DNA from: Anaerolineae bacterium
Lineage (GTDB): Bacteria > Chloroflexota > Anaerolineae > Aggregatilineales > UBA3940
Reading direction: 5' to 3'
Length of the DNA stretch: 64,000 nucleotides
Assembly (NCBI GenBank): GCA_016926255.1
Contig: JAFGOY010000012.1
Span: forward strand, 14,172-78,171
Shown: positions 6,970 to 41,670 of the stretch, one piece after another
Layout: every line of letters begins with the position of its first letter
Position numbering within the stretch: position 1 is the first letter of the stretch
The notes under the pieces: generated by a model
What the model was told of the DNA's origin: nothing
Databases searched by the model: none
Seen by the model: only the letters and a program-made list of their open reading frames with translations
Position numbers and translations under genes: made by a program

Positions 6970-7244
6970 TGCCTTTTCTCCTTCATTCTGTTGAAAAATT
7001 ACCTGTAATGCTGTTATTCTATCGCACATCGGTGTTCGCGCGATAGGGGGGCACCGCGATAACAAAAGGGAGGGTCTGGTTTATTGGTTATGGCCAGAAT
7101 ATCCCCCAGTAAATGGGGGGATAGGTGTTTCCTCGCCCTTAGACGAACTTGAACCCGAAACGGCACAAGCCGCCGAAACCCGGGGATAAGAGAATTTGCT
7201 TTTAACATTCCTTGTGCATTCTTTACGGTTTGATTTCCATCGCT

Positions 7245-24907: not shown

Positions 24908-26629
24908 CTAAGACTGATTGGCGAGGGGCAGAGAAAATGAAAACGTACTGCCTTTCCCCGATTCGCTTTCCATCCACATTTTCCCGCCGTGAAGTTCGAC
25001 TATCAGCTTGGAGATCGTCAACCCCAGGCCGGTGCCTCCCATCTCGCTGAGCACCGTGTCTGAGCGGAAGAACTGATCGAATACCTGTTCCTGCTCCTCC
25101 CGGCTGATCCCGATACCTTCGTCCTGCACACCGATCTCGATCCGGTCGGCTTCTTTTCTTCCCCGAATGGTGATCGTGCCGCCGTCGGGCGAATACTTGA
25201 TGGCGTTCGAGATCAGGTTCCAAAATACCTGTTCCAGACGGGAACGGTCAGCGTTGACCGTCGGCAGGTCATCAAAGCCAACCATCTGGATGGAATGTTC
25301 GTTTGCCGTTTCCGCAAAAGGCTGTATCACCTGATCTACCAGTTGCATCATATCAACCGGCTCGAATTCCAGTTCCAGGCCACGCCCGGACTCCAGGCGC
25401 GTGACATCGAGGAGACTATCGATGATTCGCGCCAACTGCTGGGACTGCCGGTCGATGAACTGCAGGTAGCGCCGGTGGCGCTCCGGACTGAGTTCACGAG
25501 TCAGAAGAATCTGGCTAAATCCCCGGATGCTGGTCAGCGGGGTGCGGAGTTCGTGGGCTGCCGTCGAGAGGAACGAGTCCTTCATCCGCTCGACGGTTTT
25601 CATCGCGCTGATATCACGCAGGCTGCACACCACCGCCATCAGGCCATCTTTTTCCTGAACAGGCGCCATCGCGAGTTCGGCGTCAAAGGTCGAGCCGTTC
25701 AGATGCAGGGCGGTTGCTTCAAAGCGCACCGTTTGCCGGTGAGCAACTACAGCTGCCAACCCATCCCCAAATTCATCGCGTTTGTGGGGGACCAGCAGGT
25801 TTTGCATCGGGCGGTCTTCCAGACAGTCGGGTTCCAACCCAAACAATGCCCGACAGATCGGATTGGCCCGCCGGATCGTACCATCCGGGGAGAGCAGGAA
25901 AATGGCATCAGGTGTGTTATTGACGATGACGGCCAGCCGCTCGCTTGTTCGCTGCAACTCGGCGGTGTGGTCGGCAACCTCAATTTCGAGCTGCGCGGCC
26001 CAGTTTCGCAACAAGTATTGTGAGGAAGCGACAATCCCGAAAACAATGCTGCTGGCAATCATCCAGATTAAAAACGTGAAAGCGATCGTTTCACGGATGT
26101 CCCTATTCGGGGGAACTGGCAGGCGGCCTGCCATCCACAGGCCGATCATCCCGATATACAGGACGAAACACAGCGTATATACAGCAAGGGCTTCTCTAAG
26201 CGAAAGGACAACCACGCTGACCGCTACCACCAATGTCAGTAATACGGTACCCAGCGGATCGGAAAAGGGATTCCCCTCAGTAAAGTTTCTTGTCAGCGTG
26301 GCGGCCAACAGGGACAGGACGACGAGCCATGAGGCCAGCCGGTAATGGCCCCGGCGGTTAAGCAGGTATGTCAACCCGCCGATAGCTACGCCGATGATCT
26401 CGTATAGCCGGTCACTGGCAGGGTCGACGGTGTATGTCTCCTGACGAAGGATCAGCAAAGTACCGTCGACGATCAGCAGCAGCAGTGCCCCGGCAAGTAT
26501 CGTCAGGCTGATAAGATTCACCAGGTGCGACCGGTGAGCGGATTCTGAATATGGGCCGGATAGAGGTGGAGAGATTTTTGCCAGCAGTTCGGCAAGTGGA
26601 CGGCTATTGCTTTCTGCTGATTTCTTCAT
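24908..26629 (-). CDS. Membrane sensor histidine kinase (multi-TM N-terminus, PAS, HisKA, HATPase_c)
   Basis: H-box STAAHELRTPLTSIRG, N-box NLISNAIKYSP, G-boxes DEGIGI and GGTGLGL. About 6 N-terminal hydrophobic helices. No response regulator gene is adjacent. Confidence 0.85.
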   Translation of the reverse strand: MKKSAESNSRPLAELLAKISPPLSGPYSESAHRSHLVNLISLTILAGALLLLIVDGTLLILRQETYTVDPASDRLYEIIGVAIGGLTYLLNRRGHYRLASWLVVLSLLAATLTRNFTEGNPFSDPLGTVLLTLVVAVSVVVLSLREALAVYTLCFVLYIGMIGLWMAGRLPVPPNRDIRETIAFTFLIWMIASSIVFGIVASSQYLLRNWAAQLEIEVADHTAELQRTSERLAVIVNNTPDAIFLLSPDGTIRRANPICRALFGLEPDCLEDRPMQNLLVPHKRDEFGDGLAAVVAHRQTVRFEATALHLNGSTFDAELAMAPVQEKDGLMAVVCSLRDISAMKTVERMKDSFLSTAAHELRTPLTSIRGFSQILLTRELSPERHRRYLQFIDRQSQQLARIIDSLLDVTRLESGRGLELEFEPVDMMQLVDQVIQPFAETANEHSIQMVGFDDLPTVNADRSRLEQVFWNLISNAIKYSPDGGTITIRGRKEADRIEIGVQDEGIGISREEQEQVFDQFFRSDTVLSEMGGTGLGLTISKLIVELHGGKMWMESESGKGSTFSFSLPLANQS

Positions 26630-34306: not shown

Positions 34307-34313
34307 TGGTTTG

Positions 34314-35174
34314 ATGGACTTTAGCGATCTTCAGCCAGTTGAAAGAAATGCGCTCGATGATCTGGCGACGGTAATCGGGGAACCGGTCCAGCGGGTGGAC
34401 CGGGGCCAGATGTTCGACGAGTCGATTCCGGCGCGGGTTACCATCGAGGAAGGGGCTGTCAGGGCCCTGGCAGTGTGGGGATTCTGGATAGATCGGCTGC
34501 CGGAGTCAATCGGGAATTTCGGCGATCTGATCGAGTTGTATGTGCATGACAATCGATTGGCCGAACTGCCGGAGAGCATCGGCGGGCTGGCACGATTGGA
34601 AGTGCTCGACCTGGGACACAATCAAGACCTGGCCTCGCTGCCGGACTCAATTGGCGCTCTGCGCAATTTGCGGTTCCTGTATGCAAGTGATAACCGGCTT
34701 GATTCGCTGCCGGAGTCATTATCGAATTTGCGGTCGCTGATCTATCTCAATCTCACAGATAACCGGTTCACGAGTTTACCGGAGTGGATCGGGCAGTTGG
34801 CAGGACTGATCGAACTGCGGCTGTATGACAATCAACTCGACCGGCTGCCCGATTCGATTGGGGAACTGGAGAATCTCCGGGAGATGCACATTCAGAATAA
34901 TCAACTGGTGCTGCTGCCGGAATCGATTGGGGAACTGAACTCGCTCCGGCGGTTGGGGCTGAGAGACAACTGGCTCGAAGCAGTGCCGGAGTCAACCGGA
35001 AGGCTGGCGCGGCTGGTCGATCTTGACCTGAGAAGGAATCTGCTGGAGGTGGTGCCGGATTGTCTGGCCGGGCTGCCGGAAATCGAAAGGCTCGATCTGC
35101 GCTGGAACCGGATCGGGGTACTGCCGGGGTGGATGGATCGATTGGAGGAACGCGGGTGTGTGGTGTATATGTGA
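34314..35174 (+). CDS. Leucine-rich repeat (LRR) protein, stand-alone
   Basis: About 9-10 tandem 23-residue repeats of LPESIGxLxxLxxLxLxxNxL. There is no recognisable enzymatic or signal domain. I prefer the ATG at 34314 over the TTG at 34311. Confidence 0.8.
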   Translation: MDFSDLQPVERNALDDLATVIGEPVQRVDRGQMFDESIPARVTIEEGAVRALAVWGFWIDRLPESIGNFGDLIELYVHDNRLAELPESIGGLARLEVLDLGHNQDLASLPDSIGALRNLRFLYASDNRLDSLPESLSNLRSLIYLNLTDNRFTSLPEWIGQLAGLIELRLYDNQLDRLPDSIGELENLREMHIQNNQLVLLPESIGELNSLRRLGLRDNWLEAVPESTGRLARLVDLDLRRNLLEVVPDCLAGLPEIERLDLRWNRIGVLPGWMDRLEERGCVVYM

Positions 35175-35272: not shown

Positions 35273-35749
35273 GTGCAGCAGGTTGCTAAGGATTTACGAG
35301 CGGTGGTGACGAAGGCAGCGGGGCAGATGCGGCAGGTCGGGGAGAAGGATGCTGCACAGAAACCCGGATCAGAGGAGTGGTCAAACAAGCAGGTGCTCGG
35401 CCATCTGATCGACTCGGCATCGAACAACCACCAGCGTTTTATCCGCGCGCAGCGGAGCGAATCGCACGATTTTCCCGGCTACGATCAGAACGACTGGGTT
35501 GCTTTGCAGGCGTACCAGACGAAGCCGTGGACGCAGCTTGTCACGCTGTGGGAAGTGCTGAATCTGCACCTCGCTGACATCATTGAGTGGATTCCAGAAA
35601 GCAAACTGTCGACGGAGTGCACAATCGCGGGTAAGCCGTGGACGCTCGGAGAGATCGTCGTCGGTTACTTCGGGCATATGCAGGCGCATCTCGACGATCT
35701 GCCGGTCGATGTATCGGATATCAAGCGCTACCCGTATCCGAGAGGGTGA
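35273..35749 (+). CDS. DinB-family (DinB_2-like) four-helix-bundle protein, GTG start
   Basis: Contains WSNKQVLGHLIDSASNNHQRF and a C-terminal GHMQAHLDDL, typical of DinB/YfiT-like metal-binding bundles. A strong RBS AAAGGAGGAG lies 6 nt upstream of the GTG. Confidence 0.7.
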   Translation: MQQVAKDLRAVVTKAAGQMRQVGEKDAAQKPGSEEWSNKQVLGHLIDSASNNHQRFIRAQRSESHDFPGYDQNDWVALQAYQTKPWTQLVTLWEVLNLHLADIIEWIPESKLSTECTIAGKPWTLGEIVVGYFGHMQAHLDDLPVDVSDIKRYPYPRG

Positions 35750-37660: not shown

Positions 37661-37689
37661 TTGCCTAATCGACGGGTTCAACTTACTAT
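37661..37689 (+). promoter_or_regulatory. Sigma70-like promoter for the response regulator gene (TTGCCT, 17-nt spacer, TACTAT)
   Basis: Hexamers are at 37661-37666 and 37684-37689, 36 nt upstream of the ATG. Confidence 0.4.
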
Positions 37690-37725
37690 AACTGTGTGTT
37701 TGGACTACCCTGACCAGAGGACAGA

Positions 37726-38418
37726 ATGGCCCGAATTTTAGTTGTCGATGATTCCCCGACCGCGCGCGCATCGATCAGGCTGATGCTGGCCGACGAGGGC
37801 CACACGGTGATCGAAGCGGCCAGCGGGCAGGAGGCACTCGATCTGCTCTCCGGTAAACTGCCCGACCTGATCCTGCTCGATATCGTCATGCCGAATATTG
37901 ACGGCATCGAAACCTGCAGGCGCATCCGATCTGACCCGTTTATGACCCAACTACCAATCGTCTTTCTGACGGCGAGAGATCGCCCGCATGATATCGCCAA
38001 AGGGCTGGATGCCGGTGGGGATGATTTCGTCTCGAAAGCGGCGTTGAGCGTCGAACTGCTGGCCCGTGTGCGCGCGGTGCTGCGGCGGTTTGCCGGGGGT
38101 ACGCTCGATCCTTCAGCCGACCGGCTGGCGGTTGGCGGTCTTCTCCTGTACCTGTCACGCTTTGAGGTGCTGGTCGATGGGGTGAAGGTCGAACTGACAC
38201 CGGTCGATCACCGGCTGCTTTACTACCTGATGTCGCGGGCCGGACAGCCCGTACCGACCGATCAACTGCTGGAGCACGTGTGGGAATACGCCCCCGGAGA
38301 AGGCGATCCGAAAGTGGTGCATGTGGGGATCGCCCGGCTGCGCTCGAAAATCGAAGCGGCGGATGGGCCGCGTGTCATCCGCACCGTGCGCGGGCGCGGG
38401 TACATGATCGAAGGCTGA
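37726..38418 (+). CDS. OmpR/PhoB-family response regulator (REC plus winged-helix DNA binding), orphan
   Basis: REC motifs are DD...D (ILLDIVMP) and a conserved T/K. The C-terminal winged helix reads LTPVDHRLLYYLMSRAGQPVPTDQLLEHVW...IARLRSKIE...IRTVRGRGYMI. There is no adjacent kinase gene. Confidence 0.9.
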   Translation: MARILVVDDSPTARASIRLMLADEGHTVIEAASGQEALDLLSGKLPDLILLDIVMPNIDGIETCRRIRSDPFMTQLPIVFLTARDRPHDIAKGLDAGGDDFVSKAALSVELLARVRAVLRRFAGGTLDPSADRLAVGGLLLYLSRFEVLVDGVKVELTPVDHRLLYYLMSRAGQPVPTDQLLEHVWEYAPGEGDPKVVHVGIARLRSKIEAADGPRVIRTVRGRGYMIEG

Positions 38419-38426
38419 GCCGCTTT

Positions 38427-38507
38427 CCCCTTATTACAAAAGCCTAAAGATGAGCTTCCTGTAGTGTTCTGTTACCTCCAGACGGGTGAGCACGTGGTAT
38501 CAATAAG
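38427..38507 (+). promoter_or_regulatory. Conserved upstream block 1: ATTACAAAAGCCTAAAGATGAGCTTCCTGTAGTGTTCTGTTACCT, 17-nt spacer, TGGTATCAATA (extended -10-like); contains phased direct repeat CTGTAG/CTGTTA
   Basis: It is nearly identical to 38845-38923 (44 of 45 nt in the core, same spacer length, identical TGGTATCAATA). It sits ~55 nt upstream of small ORF 1. Confidence 0.55.
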
Positions 38508-38559
38508 CTATAAGGTTTTAATGTGATAAGCAATCAAGAATTTTTAATGGAGAAATGAC

Positions 38560-38715
38560 ATGACACTCAATCCGACACTCAAAGAGAACTGGGAAAAGCT
38601 TCAGGAAAAGTACAACTACCCTGTCGATGCACTGGGACGTCCGATCGAAACGAAGGACGAGGAAACCCTGAAAGTGTGGCGCGGTGAGGGTATTGATCGC
38701 TTCCAGCAGAAGTAG
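38560..38715 (+). CDS. Small protein 1 (51 aa), unknown family: MTLNPTLKENWEKLQEKYNYPVDALGRPIETKDEETLKVWRGEGIDRFQQK
   Basis: Not in the supplied track because it is under 60 aa. GGAGA RBS lies 7 nt upstream. Its paralog 430 nt downstream has the same length and 41 of 51 identical residues, with 7 synonymous codon differences. It has its own terminator. Confidence 0.7.
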   Translation: MTLNPTLKENWEKLQEKYNYPVDALGRPIETKDEETLKVWRGEGIDRFQQK

Positions 38716-38754
38716 TACAAACCAGCCAACAGACTTTATGGGGAACCAGAGGAT

Positions 38755-38785
38755 CAGCTCCAGCAAGGAGCTGTTTTTCTTTTTT
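38755..38785 (+). terminator. Rho-independent terminator of small ORF 1 (CAGCTCC-AGCAA-GGAGCTG-TTTTTCTTTTTT)
   Basis: A 7-bp stem plus a 12-nt T-rich run, 40 nt after the stop. Confidence 0.75.
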
Positions 38786-38844
38786 GTGGCAGAGGCAGGG
38801 AGCACCCGGATGTGTTCGGGGGTGAGACAGAGCCGGACTATCTC

Positions 38845-38923
38845 TCCTATTACAAAAGCCTAAAGATGGGCTTCCTGTAGTGTTCTGTTACCTTCGGGCA
38901 GGCTGCGGTGTGGTATCAATAGA
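38845..38923 (+). promoter_or_regulatory. Conserved upstream block 2 (duplicate of 38427-38507)
   Basis: Same core, spacer length and TGGTATCAATA element. It lies ~65 nt upstream of small ORF 2. Confidence 0.55.
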
Positions 38924-38988
38924 GTAGCAACGTAATCAACCATGATTAATGGTAAAAATACTGAACAAATTTAATTGGAGGGAGACAG

Positions 38989-39144
38989 ATGGCACTCGAT
39001 CCGAAAGTCAAAGAAAACTGGGAAAAGCTTCAGGAAAAGTACAACTATCCTGTCGATGCACTGGGGCGACCGATCGATCCGAAGGACGAGGAAACCCTGC
39101 GAGTCTGGCAGAGTGAGGGTATCGACCGCTTCCAGCCGAAGTAG
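38989..39144 (+). CDS. Small protein 2 (51 aa), paralog of 38560-38715: MALDPKVKENWEKLQEKYNYPVDALGRPIDPKDEETLRVWQSEGIDRFQPK
   Basis: GGAGGGAGA RBS. The frame is conserved with copy 1. The track ORF 38975-39196 is in a different frame that is not conserved between the two copies. Confidence 0.7.
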   Translation: MALDPKVKENWEKLQEKYNYPVDALGRPIDPKDEETLRVWQSEGIDRFQPK

Positions 39145-39185
39145 TGGAACCTATCCGACAATAGTTTTACTGGTATCCGGAGAAT

Positions 39186-39218
39186 CAGCCTCATGATGAT
39201 GAGGCTGTTTTGCTTTTT
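39186..39218. terminator. Terminator hairpin between convergent genes (CAGCCTCAT-GATG-ATGAGGCTG-TTTTGCTTTTT)
   Basis: A 9-bp stem plus T-run, 42 nt after small ORF 2 and 13 nt before the stop of the minus-strand gene. Confidence 0.75.
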
Positions 39219-39230
39219 GCAGGCATTACG

Positions 39231-39605
39231 CTAATCGCCGACCCCCGCCAGGAATGAAAGCACCCTTTCCTGCACCTCATCCGGGGTCAGGTCATTGGTA
39301 TCGATGTAGAGATCGCAGTGCTGGCGGGCATGGGAAAGCCGCTCGACTTCGACTGCGAGGCGATCCGGCCCCCAGTCAACCAGCGGGCGGCGCTGCCGGG
39401 AAACCTCAAAACTGACATCCAGATAAATCAACACATCGGGCGGGTGGATTCGCTGCCACATGTCTTTGACGTAGGAATGCTCCTGGGCGACATGGCGCAC
39501 GGCATATCCAGCGGCTTTCAACCGCGTGACGAGCGTCGATTTGCCGGAGGCGCTCGGCCCGACGACGGCTACTACCAGATCGGGCCGGGCGTCCTCATTG
39601 TTCAT
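39231..39605 (-). CDS. Small P-loop NTPase/kinase-like protein (124 aa)
   Basis: Walker A motif VVGPSASGKSTL at the N-terminus, with a Walker-B-like VLIYLD. It overlaps the upstream gene by 11 nt. Confidence 0.65.
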   Translation of the reverse strand: MNNEDARPDLVVAVVGPSASGKSTLVTRLKAAGYAVRHVAQEHSYVKDMWQRIHPPDVLIYLDVSFEVSRQRRPLVDWGPDRLAVEVERLSHARQHCDLYIDTNDLTPDEVQERVLSFLAGVGD

Positions 39606-40695
39606 CGCGGCAGGGCCGGTTCCAGTTGCGGGCCAGGTCTTTGATCTGGGGGAGACCGGCCACCACAGCGATCACGTCACCGGAGTGGAGCACCACGTCG
39701 TCGTTGGGACTCTGGTCGACGGCATCACCGGATTGGAGGAGGACAATCGAAATGTCGAGTGTGTCTTCGACGCTGCCGACTGCCGCCCCATCGAGGCGGG
39801 AGCAGGGCTGCACCTCGACGCGGCCCATCGCCAATACCTGATCGCCCACTTTGAAGGTCTGGACGATCTCGGTGCCAGCGGCGGCCCCGGCAAAAGCGGG
39901 CGCAGCCATCATCGAGGCACTCATCACGGCGCTGACCTCGAAACGGTCGGCCATCGCCTCGGCGAACTGGTCGTCGAACATGCGCATGACGATGCGGATA
40001 CTCCTGTTCGTCTCGCGGATACGGCTGGCGATCTGGAGGTTGGCAAGGTCGTTGTTGGTGGCGATGATCACCGCCGCCGCGCGGTCGATCCCGGCGGCGT
40101 CCAGAATATCGACGTTGCGGGCGTCGCCGGTGATCACCGGGATATCGTATTCGCGGACTTCGACAAAGCGGGGCGAATCTTCGTGGATTTCGATCACGAC
40201 GATGTCTTCGTCGAGGATGACCAGCTCACGCACCACGCGAATTCCCAGGTGGCCCAGGCCGATGATAATGATGTGGTCATTGAACGTAGATGCCACGGCA
40301 GCCTCCCATTGACTGTGACGCGAACGTCGATTGAACAACAGCGGTAGAAAATCGGCCAGGCCGGTAGCCAGCGCGATGACGCCCAGCAGGGGCATCAGGA
40401 AGTAGTAAATATCGAGGTACCACTCCTGCGGGAAATCGAGGGTGGGCTGCATCAGGGTGAGCGCCGAGGTCTGGAACAGCGCCTCGATGAAACGCATCGA
40501 GTTGTCGGGGTAAGTCTGGTTCCAGAGCGCCTGGAAGCTGATCGCGCCGAGCAGCAGGGCGACGGTAAAGATAACCAGCCCCACGCGGAACTCGCGCAGA
40601 AGCACCCAGGTATCGCGCAGAGACGCCCGCAGGCGTCGGCGGATGGCGCGGCGGTGGTAGGCGGCCCTGGCATCATCACGGGTGGTGATGGTCAT
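39595..40695 (-). CDS. Membrane protein with RCK/TrkA-N and TrkA-C domains (potassium-channel-related, no obvious GYG filter)
   Basis: N-terminal helices are followed by a Rossmann motif IIIIGLGHLGIRVVREL and a C-terminal TrkA-C-like beta domain. I did not see a TVGYG selectivity filter. Confidence 0.7.
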   Translation of the reverse strand: MTITTRDDARAAYHRRAIRRRLRASLRDTWVLLREFRVGLVIFTVALLLGAISFQALWNQTYPDNSMRFIEALFQTSALTLMQPTLDFPQEWYLDIYYFLMPLLGVIALATGLADFLPLLFNRRSRHSQWEAAVASTFNDHIIIIGLGHLGIRVVRELVILDEDIVVIEIHEDSPRFVEVREYDIPVITGDARNVDILDAAGIDRAAAVIIATNNDLANLQIASRIRETNRSIRIVMRMFDDQFAEAMADRFEVSAVMSASMMAAPAFAGAAAGTEIVQTFKVGDQVLAMGRVEVQPCSRLDGAAVGSVEDTLDISIVLLQSGDAVDQSPNDDVVLHSGDVIAVVAGLPQIKDLARNWNRPCRDEQ

Positions 40696-40763
40696 AGAGG
40701 CGGCTCCCCTTTCTGTACCCGGCGCTGAAGCACCGGGCTAAAGTGTCACCTTGATATAGGTCA

Positions 40764-41495
40764 TCAGGGCCGCAGGATGGGCGGCACCGGGAATGAGACA
40801 CTCAATCGTCGGATTTCGTCGGACTGGTTATGAGCGACGGCGACGACCAGCACGGAAATATCATCCTTAGGGCGATTATCGTCGCGGTGGAGCGCTTCGG
40901 CAAGCAGGGCATCAGCGATGGGCCGGGCGATGTCAGGTTGATCGATGCTGCGGGCGTAGAGTTCGTCGACGAAGGCGGGGACATCAATCGCGCCGCCGTT
41001 GTTCTCTCCGGCACACTGAACGCCATCGGTGAAGACGACCGCCACCATCCCGTAGGCGACCGGCAGCTCGGCGATCTGGGGCTTGGTGCGGGCGTGGACG
41101 CCAATCGGCGGGGCGGGGTCGTTGAGGATGATCTGCTCGCCGGGGGCGGTCTGGATGATCGCCGGGCAGTGGCTGTTCCGCGAGAGGACGAGCGTCTTGG
41201 AGGCCATATCGACGGAGACGATGTTGAGGGTCGCCGAGACTTTGCCGCCGCGCTGGGTGTACAAATAATCGTGGGTGGCACGGGCGGCGGCCCCATCACG
41301 GACGCCTTCGGAAAGAAGGGCGATGGCTTTACTGGTGACGAGATTACTGATTGTCTTGGCCGCTCTGCCGGATCGCTGGCCGTCGGCGAGTACGAACGAG
41401 AGTCCCCCCTGGGGACGTTCGATCATTTCGAGTGTGTCGCCGCTTTCGCTGGTGGCGTATTTACCGATCTTGGCTGCGGCTACCTGAATCTGCAC
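40764..41495 (-). CDS. PP2C/SpoIIE-family serine/threonine phosphatase (catalytic domain only), GTG start
   Basis: Motifs SGDTLE...FVLADGQRSGRAAK, VVFTDGV and DDISVLVV are present. The start is moved to GTG 41495 (GAGGAA RBS). The track start at TTG 41594 lies inside a family D repeat. Confidence 0.7.
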   Translation of the reverse strand: MQIQVAAAKIGKYATSESGDTLEMIERPQGGLSFVLADGQRSGRAAKTISNLVTSKAIALLSEGVRDGAAARATHDYLYTQRGGKVSATLNIVSVDMASKTLVLSRNSHCPAIIQTAPGEQIILNDPAPPIGVHARTKPQIAELPVAYGMVAVVFTDGVQCAGENNGGAIDVPAFVDELYARSIDQPDIARPIADALLAEALHRDDNRPKDDISVLVVAVAHNQSDEIRRLSVSFPVPPILRP

Positions 41496-41670
41496 GGGCG
41501 GGTTCCTCGGTGTGATGGTTGGACGTTGGGATAATGATACCACCGGGGCGGGTTGTCCACGAGTGAGGAGGATTCGATCCGCGAATTGCGCCAATTACGC
41601 TAATTATTTTTAGCGGGCTACCGCCCGCCGGGAATCGATTAAATGTAACTGGTGCAGATGAGGACAAATT

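Follow-up and report, generated by a model that had tools for sequence, protein, structure and literature searches.

Within a 64-kb stretch of DNA from an Anaerolineae bacterium (contig JAFGOY010000012.1; the window, as used here, is this whole analyzed stretch of 64,000 nucleotides), two genes of 51 codons each, at 38560 to 38715 and 38989 to 39144 on the forward strand, lie downstream of a gene for an OmpR/PhoB-family response regulator. We find that both belong to a conserved microprotein family whose members appear to be linked specifically to this clade of regulator and, outside chemosensory operons, share a promoter architecture that includes a candidate operator. Most other loci of the family place the gene inside a pilus-type chemosensory cluster, between genes for an M16 peptidase and a CheY-like receiver. 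The explanation of these observations as a whole toward which we lean slightly is that the regulator activates an extra dose of a chemosensory accessory microprotein, the lifetime of which is limited by the M16 peptidase.

Two 51-codon genes belong to a conserved microprotein family

The first gene encodes a protein of 6.1 kDa with an isoelectric point (pI) of 5.3, and the second encodes a protein with a pI of 5.0. Both open reading frames (ORFs) had been proposed in a preliminary description made from the sequence of the locus, and their positions, strand, and translations matched those quoted there exactly, as did the count of 41 identical residues out of 51 (80.4%). The two genes differ at 19 of 153 nucleotides; ten codons differ in the residue encoded, and the seven synonymous differences described earlier were borne out as seven synonymously differing codons. 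The ratio of nonsynonymous to synonymous substitution (dN/dS) between the two genes is 0.31 by the Nei-Gojobori method, and its median over 172 gene pairs of the family is 0.13, which indicates purifying selection. The family hidden Markov model (HMM) recovers the two proteins with E values of 3.5e-28 and 2.2e-30, respectively. Judged by these comparative sequence data, namely, a conserved family, retention of the 51-codon frame, and dN/dS values well below 1, the two ORFs are confirmed as real genes. They had been called unannotated and likely to be missed by standard annotation, which proved incorrect: NCBI holds a protein identical to the first microprotein (P0001; hypothetical protein JXJ17_04680 of an Anaerolineae metagenome-assembled genome, or MAG), and most relatives had already been called by the JGI and ENA pipelines.

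Signals for translation and termination were located for each gene. A GGAG-type ribosome-binding site (RBS) precedes both: GGAG at 38549 to 38552 for the first gene, in an unstructured AT-rich leader (28% GC), and GGAGGGAG at 38977 to 38984 for the second, found by sequence inspection. Folding of the leaders was no better than that of shuffled sequences (z score for the first leader, +0.6). The hairpin plus T-run described for each gene was recovered by a terminator scan, and both terminators are on the forward strand. The first intrinsic terminator (38755 to 38783) has a GC-rich stem of 7 bp at 38755 to 38773 followed by TTTTTCTTTT, and the second (39186 to 39217) has a stem of 9 bp at 39186 to 39207 followed by TTTTGCTTTT; folding compared with that of shuffled sequence gave z scores of -2.5 and -3.7, respectively. 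The stems have different sequences and lengths (7 and 9 pairs), yet pairing is kept in both. The leader and the upstream block were also considered as sites of a riboswitch or small RNA, which was rejected, as a search of Rfam at E values up to 10 returned only a chance small nucleolar RNA match inside the regulator gene.

A search with a single sequence found 43 relatives, nearly all of exactly 51 residues, and a profile search found at least 436 protein clusters, again nearly all of 51 residues. An exhaustive HMM search of 1.8 billion representative sequences (50% clustering) gave 67 matches at E values up to 1e-3. Among 114 aligned sequences, W11, Q15, and I29 are invariant, and M1, P21, V22, A24, G26, D33, T36, L37, W40, and the run E43-G44-I45-D46 are nearly so. 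Conservation covers residues 11 to 47, with variation limited to the first 9 and the last 3 residues. The microproteins have a pI of approximately 5, are strongly hydrophilic, and contain no cysteine and few serine or threonine residues, and neither has a signal peptide or a membrane segment; the microprotein is acidic, soluble, and cytoplasmic. An AlphaFold model made with the 114-sequence alignment reached a predicted local distance difference test score of 83 (versus 66 with 44 sequences). Its predicted fold consists of a helix at residues 5 to 17, a hairpin around residues 22 to 28, a helix at residues 34 to 43, and a short helix at residues 45 to 48.

The preliminary description had not recognized the peptide family, and we likewise found no match to a characterized family in Pfam, NCBIfam, PHROGs, PADLOC, or the PDB. 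The sole Pfam hit was to RHS, at 14.7 bits against a cutoff of 27.9, and NCBIfam gave none. No PHROGs or PADLOC match was significant, the best being a PHROG of unknown function (E value, 0.063) for a distant relative; PDB sequence profiles gave a best E value of 0.007 over 22 residues, and a Foldseek comparison of the AlphaFold model with the PDB gave nothing better than an E value of 6. Residues 18 to 30 of both microproteins (YNYPVDALGRPI; 38611 to 38649 and 39040 to 39078) resemble a YD/RHS repeat, and the family profile matches short repeated stretches in giant proteins (P0061, of 1,932 residues with 20 such stretches, P0101, P0106, and P0110). We rejected membership in the YD/RHS family, since the single match is of hairpin length and lies below the Pfam gathering threshold, and the resemblance probably reflects merely a shared beta-hairpin motif.

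The peptides had also been judged not to be precursors of ribosomally synthesized and posttranslationally modified peptides (RiPPs). The absence of a leader/core split and of cysteine, together with the conservation of residues 11 to 47, upholds this view. The M16 peptidase is the only gene of relevant type conserved nearby; no radical S-adenosylmethionine (radical-SAM) enzyme, YcaO protein, lanthionine synthetase, or ATP-binding cassette exporter was found.

Fused forms of the 51-residue domain also occur, N-terminal to an Smr domain in P0070 and C-terminal to an FHA domain in P0098, and P0065 and P0071 carry, after the domain, a tail rich in Pro and Ala that ends in YYRG. The context of the Smr fusion (locus L109) contains no che genes. 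The weakest family member, P0109 (E value, 8e-4), is encoded at 7001 to 7159 of locus L025 within a series of short genes that lack annotation, with Bro-N, HNH, and cold-shock genes close by. This neighborhood is prophage-like, and either the family extends to mobile elements or P0109 is a false relative. A reference-genome scan with a narrower alignment found carriers only among Anaerolineae and Chloroflexota MAGs.

A direct repeat in fixed register with the -10 box precedes the genes

A near-identical block had been noted upstream of each gene, and the comparison was reproduced. The two copies differ at 1 of 45 positions in the core (38433 to 38477 and 38849 to 38893) and at 11 of 17 positions in the spacer, and the TGGTATCAATA element is identical. 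If the core diverged as synonymous sites of the coding sequences do (proportion of synonymous differences, pS, of 0.255), one difference or fewer in 45 nucleotides would have a probability of 2.9e-5. Because the core has far fewer changes than coding synonymous divergence predicts, it is either constrained or recently gene converted. The regulator gene had been said to end approximately 9 nucleotides before the first block; the conserved core actually begins 14 nucleotides past the stop codon.

The core comprises an upstream part and a predicted operator, both on the forward strand. The upstream part (38433 to 38459, including ATTACAAAAG at about -77 to -68, and 38849 to 38875) has 1 difference in 27 positions, A/G at 38453. 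The predicted operator has the sequence TGTAGT-GTTC-TGTTAC-CT in both copies. The first, at 38460 to 38477, scores 22.3 bits with a position weight matrix (PWM) and has a conserved register to the -10 box; the second, at 38876 to 38893, was found by repeat search, alignment, and PWM. Extended -10 elements, TGG-TATCAA, were identified by alignment at 38495 to 38503, 17 nucleotides past the operator CT, and at 38911 to 38919, also on the forward strand. The 17-mer repeat CTGTAGTGTTCTGTTAC occurs at just these two places in 64 kb with up to 3 mismatches allowed (0.01 expected by chance), and a PWM from the family promoters gives only two window sites above 20 bits. A scan for consensus sigma-70 promoters found no full promoter and no -35 hexamer before either gene. 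The missing -35 hexamer fits dependence on an activator.

The promoter set comprised every family gene outside che operons, with upstream sequences anchored on the -10 box. Nine promoters from seven loci share the architecture TGTAGC-N4-TGTTAC-CT-N17-TGn-TAnnnT. The register is exact in seven of the nine (both window copies, L002, L009, L012, and both L017 copies); the L018 promoter is shifted by 1 nucleotide, and the L030 promoter is degenerate. The sequence of the N17 spacer is unrelated between loci. The direct repeat first noticed in the window is conserved across distant relatives as a cis-element whose register to the -10 box is fixed. It had been placed at about -45 to -30; with transcription assumed to start 7 nucleotides after the -10 box, near 38510 and 38926, the half-sites were recomputed to -50 to -45 and -40 to -35, about 5 nucleotides off, and the repeat is centered at -42.5, which is an activator position. 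With a period of 10 to 11 bp, a fixed register, and no -35 box, these promoters have the features of OmpR/PhoB-type activator-dependent promoters, and we infer that the regulator may bind the repeat. The comparisons support the assignment of a separate promoter-like block and a separate terminator to each gene. The observation itself, comprising the genes, their RBSs and terminators, and the duplicated block, is confirmed.

The candidate operator resembles the Pho box and HLR1, the site of RpaB, in having two direct half-sites of the TGTnAC/GTnACA type, 10 to 11 bp apart, and no usable -35 box; regulators of this family are known to act through direct repeats of 10-bp period that precede the -10 box. 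Its center, near -42.5, lies one helical turn upstream of the Escherichia coli Pho-box position. HLR1 consists of (G/T)TTACA(T/A)(T/A)-N2 repeats with a 10-bp period and activates when centered at about -50 (PMC6525291). The microprotein promoters differ from the Pho box and HLR1 in their half-site consensus, TGTAGC / TGTTAC-CT, and in that binding by the regulator is a prediction.

Further elements were seen around these promoters. The sequence (A/G)TTACAAA(A/T) is present at 38433 to 38442 and 38849 to 38858, and (A/G)TTACAAA recurs at the equivalent position of L009 and L012. The element at about -77 to -68 resembles an inverted half-site, GTTACA being TGTAAC on the opposite strand. L002 and L017 instead carry extra direct CTGTAA half-sites at about -61 and -72. 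No strong PWM operator was found upstream of the regulator gene itself. In L006, TGTTAC-N5-TGTAAC (548 to 568) lies between a C-terminal regulator fragment and the first gene of the che operon; it was rejected as an operator because it is 42 nucleotides from the nearest -10-like box and out of register.

The microprotein genes are linked to one clade of OmpR-type regulators

The regulator gene (37726 to 38418, forward strand) encodes a protein of 230 residues that belongs to the OmpR/PhoB family, with Response_reg (PF00072, residues 4 to 115; 1e-28) and Trans_reg_C (PF00486, residues 154 to 227; 6e-22) domains in Pfam. It falls below every NCBIfam equivalog cutoff: MtrA is the best (182 bits against 300), followed by PhoB (172 against 296), and the scores for RpaB (166 against 330) and OmpR (116 against 331) likewise do not place it in these equivalogs. 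The gene is flanked by an acyltransferase gene on the opposite strand and by the microprotein genes. The regulator had been described as having no adjacent kinase, and a survey of the window agrees: the nearest histidine kinase gene, at 24908 to 26629 on the reverse strand, is 11 kb away. It encodes a PAS-HisKA-HATPase kinase and has no partner regulator annotated beside it in the survey. This kinase is a candidate phosphodonor for the regulator, alongside a distant CheA.

Synteny of the family with an OmpR-type regulator had been suggested as a check on the locus, and it was found. A family gene is directly downstream of the regulator gene in five of six orthologues versus none of 78 paralogues. 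The five loci with the gene directly 3' of the regulator are the window, L002, L017, L018, and L030, the orthologues having 51 to 56% identity (51 to 53% for L002/L004, L017, and L018). The linkage test, described as unbiased, covered 80 metagenome loci encoding relatives of the regulator, only two of which (L029 and L030) are at least 55% identical. In L030, a family gene and promoter are immediately downstream of the regulator orthologue, and the neighboring ORFs selected for a Pfam search gave no match. In L029, ORFs for an IS3-family transposase (1150 to 1800) start right after the stop codon of the orthologue, where the microprotein gene would be expected. The 78 paralogue loci (43% identity or less) include none with a family gene. 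These data show a syntenic link between regulator and microprotein that is specific to this regulator clade.

The main home of the family is in pilus-type chemosensory clusters

The regulator and the two short genes had been viewed as a small regulated effector module; comparison with other loci shows that the unit is not self-contained. In most family loci, the gene is inside a chemosensory cluster and not beside an OmpR-type regulator, and the main home of the family is between an M16 peptidase gene and a CheY-like gene in pilus-type clusters. Thirteen nonredundant arrays are ordered as M16 peptidase, one to three microprotein genes, and receiver. Past the receiver, where the locus reaches that far, there are genes for CheW and a methyl-accepting chemotaxis protein (MCP) and for either a CheA-receiver protein or CheR. 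The order in Anaerolineae (L001, L006, L008, L010, L011, L013 to L016, L017, and L018) is receiver, M16, one to three microproteins, CheY, CheW, MCP (dCache/PAS), and CheA-receiver hybrid. Other orders are CheW-CheA-CheW-CheW-M16-microprotein-CheY-MCP in L024; M16-microprotein-receiver-CheY-CheW-MCP-CheR in L027/L028; M16, two microproteins, TPR, receiver, PatA_N, CheY, ParA, CheW, MCP, and CheR in L111/L112 (a Chloroflexi MAG); and PatA_N-receiver-microprotein-CheY-CheW, with MCP-CheR further on, in L021 (cluster member named Candidatus Coatesbacteria). The position within a chemosensory cluster is seen in the 13 M16-linked arrays and in L021 and L019, covering Chloroflexota and a lineage assigned to Candidatus Coatesbacteria.

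The order M16-microprotein-CheY recurs where the microproteins share just 31 to 55% identity. The M16 peptidases of the clusters, which are cytoplasmic zinc peptidases, have an intact HxxEH motif and no signal peptide, and the chemoreceptors of the clusters have dCache_1 sensor domains. In L001, Opp-like permease genes lie upstream. For che clusters that include an M16/insulinase peptidase or a small protein, a search of the available literature gave no relevant description.

In three lineages, the regulator orthologue abuts a che cluster (L002, convergent; L017 and L018, divergent), which makes the kinase of the cluster a plausible phosphodonor. From this gene order, the "orphan" regulator is probably one that is served by a distant CheA or kinase. 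The MAGs Zod_Metabat.387 and Zod_Metabat.487 each have a che-linked pair and a stand-alone copy, and these genomes therefore carry at least three paralogues. Residue 25 is M, T, or V in 10 of 12 M16-proximal copies (L001, L006, L008, L010, L011, L013, L014, L017, and L018), and it is L in CheY-proximal copies and in all regulator-linked or stand-alone copies, including both window genes. This pattern hints at two paralogue types that may have arisen by an old duplication and have divided roles, possibly as a heterodimer.

Neighboring genes in the window

A likely operon on the reverse strand (39231 to 41594) converges on the second terminator. It contains genes for a SpoIIE/PP2C-type phosphatase (40764 to 41594), a membrane TrkA_N protein (39595 to 40695), and a 124-residue P-loop protein with weak RapZ-like similarity (39231 to 39605), the last overlapping the TrkA_N gene by 11 nucleotides. 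On the other side of the regulator gene, a forward-strand gene at 34311 to 35174 encodes a 287-residue leucine-rich-repeat protein (LRR_8 and LRR_14), which is unusual in bacteria, and is adjoined by a gene for a DinB_2 protein (35273 to 35749).

Discussion

In the explanation that we narrowly favor, the phosphorylated regulator would bind TGTAGT-N4-TGTTAC as a head-to-tail dimer centered near -42.5 and, once bound, would drive transcription from a promoter with an extended -10 box that lacks a -35 box. With a separate terminator behind each gene, the products would be two short mRNAs, each monocistronic. The regulator would be the output of the chemosensory pathway or of an unlinked kinase, and the window genes would supply an additional, inducible dose of the paralogue type found next to CheY. 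The microprotein would bind a component of the pathway in the cytoplasm, most plausibly the adjacent CheY- or PatA-type receiver. Members of the M16 family handle substrates of roughly this size, and the M16 peptidase, having a suitable chamber, may limit the lifetime of the microprotein. A more specific proposal is that the microprotein and the M16 peptidase form an unrecognized chemosensory accessory module, in which the microprotein binds the receiver as a phosphatase acting through Gln15, as an adaptor, or as an inhibitor, and in which its level is set both by synthesis under the regulator, from the TGTAGC-N4-TGTTAC promoters, and by M16 degradation. We put this proposal forward tentatively, as a possibility that falls well short of probable.

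Several observations weigh against the idea of a regulator-activated chemosensory microprotein. The same promoter is found in L009 and L012, where no gene for the regulator lies within 6 kb, and any control of these copies by the regulator would have to be exerted in trans. The 64-kb window contains no M16 or che genes, and the link of its microproteins to chemosensing is by homology only. The promoters of the che operons have no strong PWM operator, so the regulator may lie outside that pathway. The identity of the two cores could partly reflect gene conversion. Distant members (L020, L025, L026, and L109) are found in unrelated contexts, and all relatives are metagenomic or MAG derived. Finally, the structure model has no PDB match, and no specific biochemical activity is supported.

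Some of these points would also suit a reading in which the adjacency to the regulator is mere neighborhood, the repeat is bound by another factor or belongs to a constitutive promoter, and the microprotein has a general cytoplasmic role in stress or as a chaperone-like adaptor. The L009 and L012 promoters and the absence of che genes from the window are compatible with it, as are the distant members that adjoin a sigma-70 gene, lie in a phage-like region, or are fused to Smr. It is weakened by the linkage in five of six orthologues and none of 78 paralogues, by half-sites of the OmpR-family TGTnAC/GTnACA class at an activator position, and by the order M16-microprotein-CheY being retained between microproteins of 31 to 55% identity. 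We consider this reading unlikely.

The M16 peptidase, with its active site preserved and its gene directly 5' of the microprotein genes in 13 arrays, raises a different interpretation. The 51-mers could be substrates that it cuts to an exported signaling peptide, sensed by the dCache-type chemoreceptor of the cluster, with the regulator-driven copies boosting the signal in a pheromone- or RiPP-like manner. A protein of 51 residues is within the size limit of the M16 chamber in pitrilysin, IDE, and PreP, and PqqA with PqqF is a precedent. The dCache_1 sensor domains of the chemoreceptors and the permease genes upstream in L001 would also fit. In contrast, the microproteins lack a signal peptide and a leader/core split, are conserved over residues 11 to 47, are predicted with confidence to have a compact fold, and contain no cysteine and few serine or threonine residues. 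In rare relatives, the domain is joined to an FHA or an Smr domain, both of which are cytoplasmic; the peptidase is itself without a signal peptide; and the clusters have no conserved gene for an exporter or a modifying enzyme. An exported peptide is, on these grounds, distinctly improbable. That the ORFs are untranslated and the duplicated unit is a noncoding repeat (a small RNA gene or mobile repeat) with a chance open frame might be suggested by short genes that fall under the 60-residue cutoff of the ORF track and are duplicated along with their flanks, but this is in effect refuted by the comparative data, as hundreds of relatives, with identities down to approximately 30%, retain both the frame and its length of 51 codons, dN/dS is well below 1, the RBSs are strong, Rfam gave no match, and the leaders are unstructured.

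The proposed regulator-activated microprotein can be compared with established systems. Small proteins that act back on signaling include MgrB (47 residues, PhoP induced), SafA (EvgA induced), and PmrD (PhoP induced). Like them, the microproteins are encoded by very short genes beside or under an OmpR/PhoB-type regulator, with putative regulator direct repeats in the promoter, and by analogy they would presumably modulate a signaling pathway by dosage. Unlike them, they are soluble and acidic rather than membrane inserted, with no relation in sequence or fold, occur as two to three or more paralogues per genome, and have their main home in a chemosensory operon beside an M16 peptidase.

Chemosensory clusters of the type IV pilus class include Pil-Chp of Pseudomonas and Tax1/Pix of Synechocystis. 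We take the cluster type of the microprotein family to be this Pil-Chp/Pix class, which controls type IV pili. The family loci share with it the order receiver (PilG/PatA-type), CheY, CheW, MCP, in some cases CheR, and CheA-receiver hybrid, and some include PatA_N/DUF4388 proteins. They differ in that an M16 gene and one to three microprotein genes are placed between two receiver genes (Anaerolineae) or at the head of the cluster (L027 and L111), and the window differs further in holding only regulator-linked copies.

As a small helical protein encoded directly beside a CheY-like gene, the microprotein resembles CheZ, CheC/CheX, Spo0E, and CheS, and its invariant Q15, on helix 1, is reminiscent of the amide side chains that serve catalysis in CheZ and the Rap phosphatases. 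Neither Pfam nor NCBIfam gave a match that would place the microprotein in the CheZ, CheC/X/FliY, or Spo0E family, and a phosphatase or adaptor activity is pure conjecture drawn from this analogy. The microprotein is also like PqqA with PqqF/G in that its very small gene lies beside one for an M16 metallopeptidase with an intact HxxEH motif. It differs from PqqA in having no radical-SAM or other modifying enzyme, in its whole-length conservation and predicted fold, and in its chemosensory context.

Small accessory proteins are known from two-component and chemosensory signaling, and the microprotein would be one of them; what is new is the family and its M16 partner. It is a candidate new chemosensory component: a 51-residue protein that, with an M16 peptidase, is conserved in pilus-type clusters of Chloroflexota and at least one other phylum. 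Few bacterial signaling systems are as well catalogued as chemosensory pathways, yet this microprotein had no family assignment, and cutoffs of 60 residues for ORFs conceal conserved signaling components of this kind. The locus is also a rare computational case in which regulator, candidate operator, promoter, targets, and terminators can all be read with comparative support. If the link to the peptidase is real, regulated proteolysis of a microprotein would join the known ways of tuning CheY-type signaling. If the microprotein and the peptidase do form an accessory module, the level of the microprotein would set the gain or memory of the pathway, and adaptation might proceed through a proteolytically timed microprotein, instead of or besides receptor methylation.

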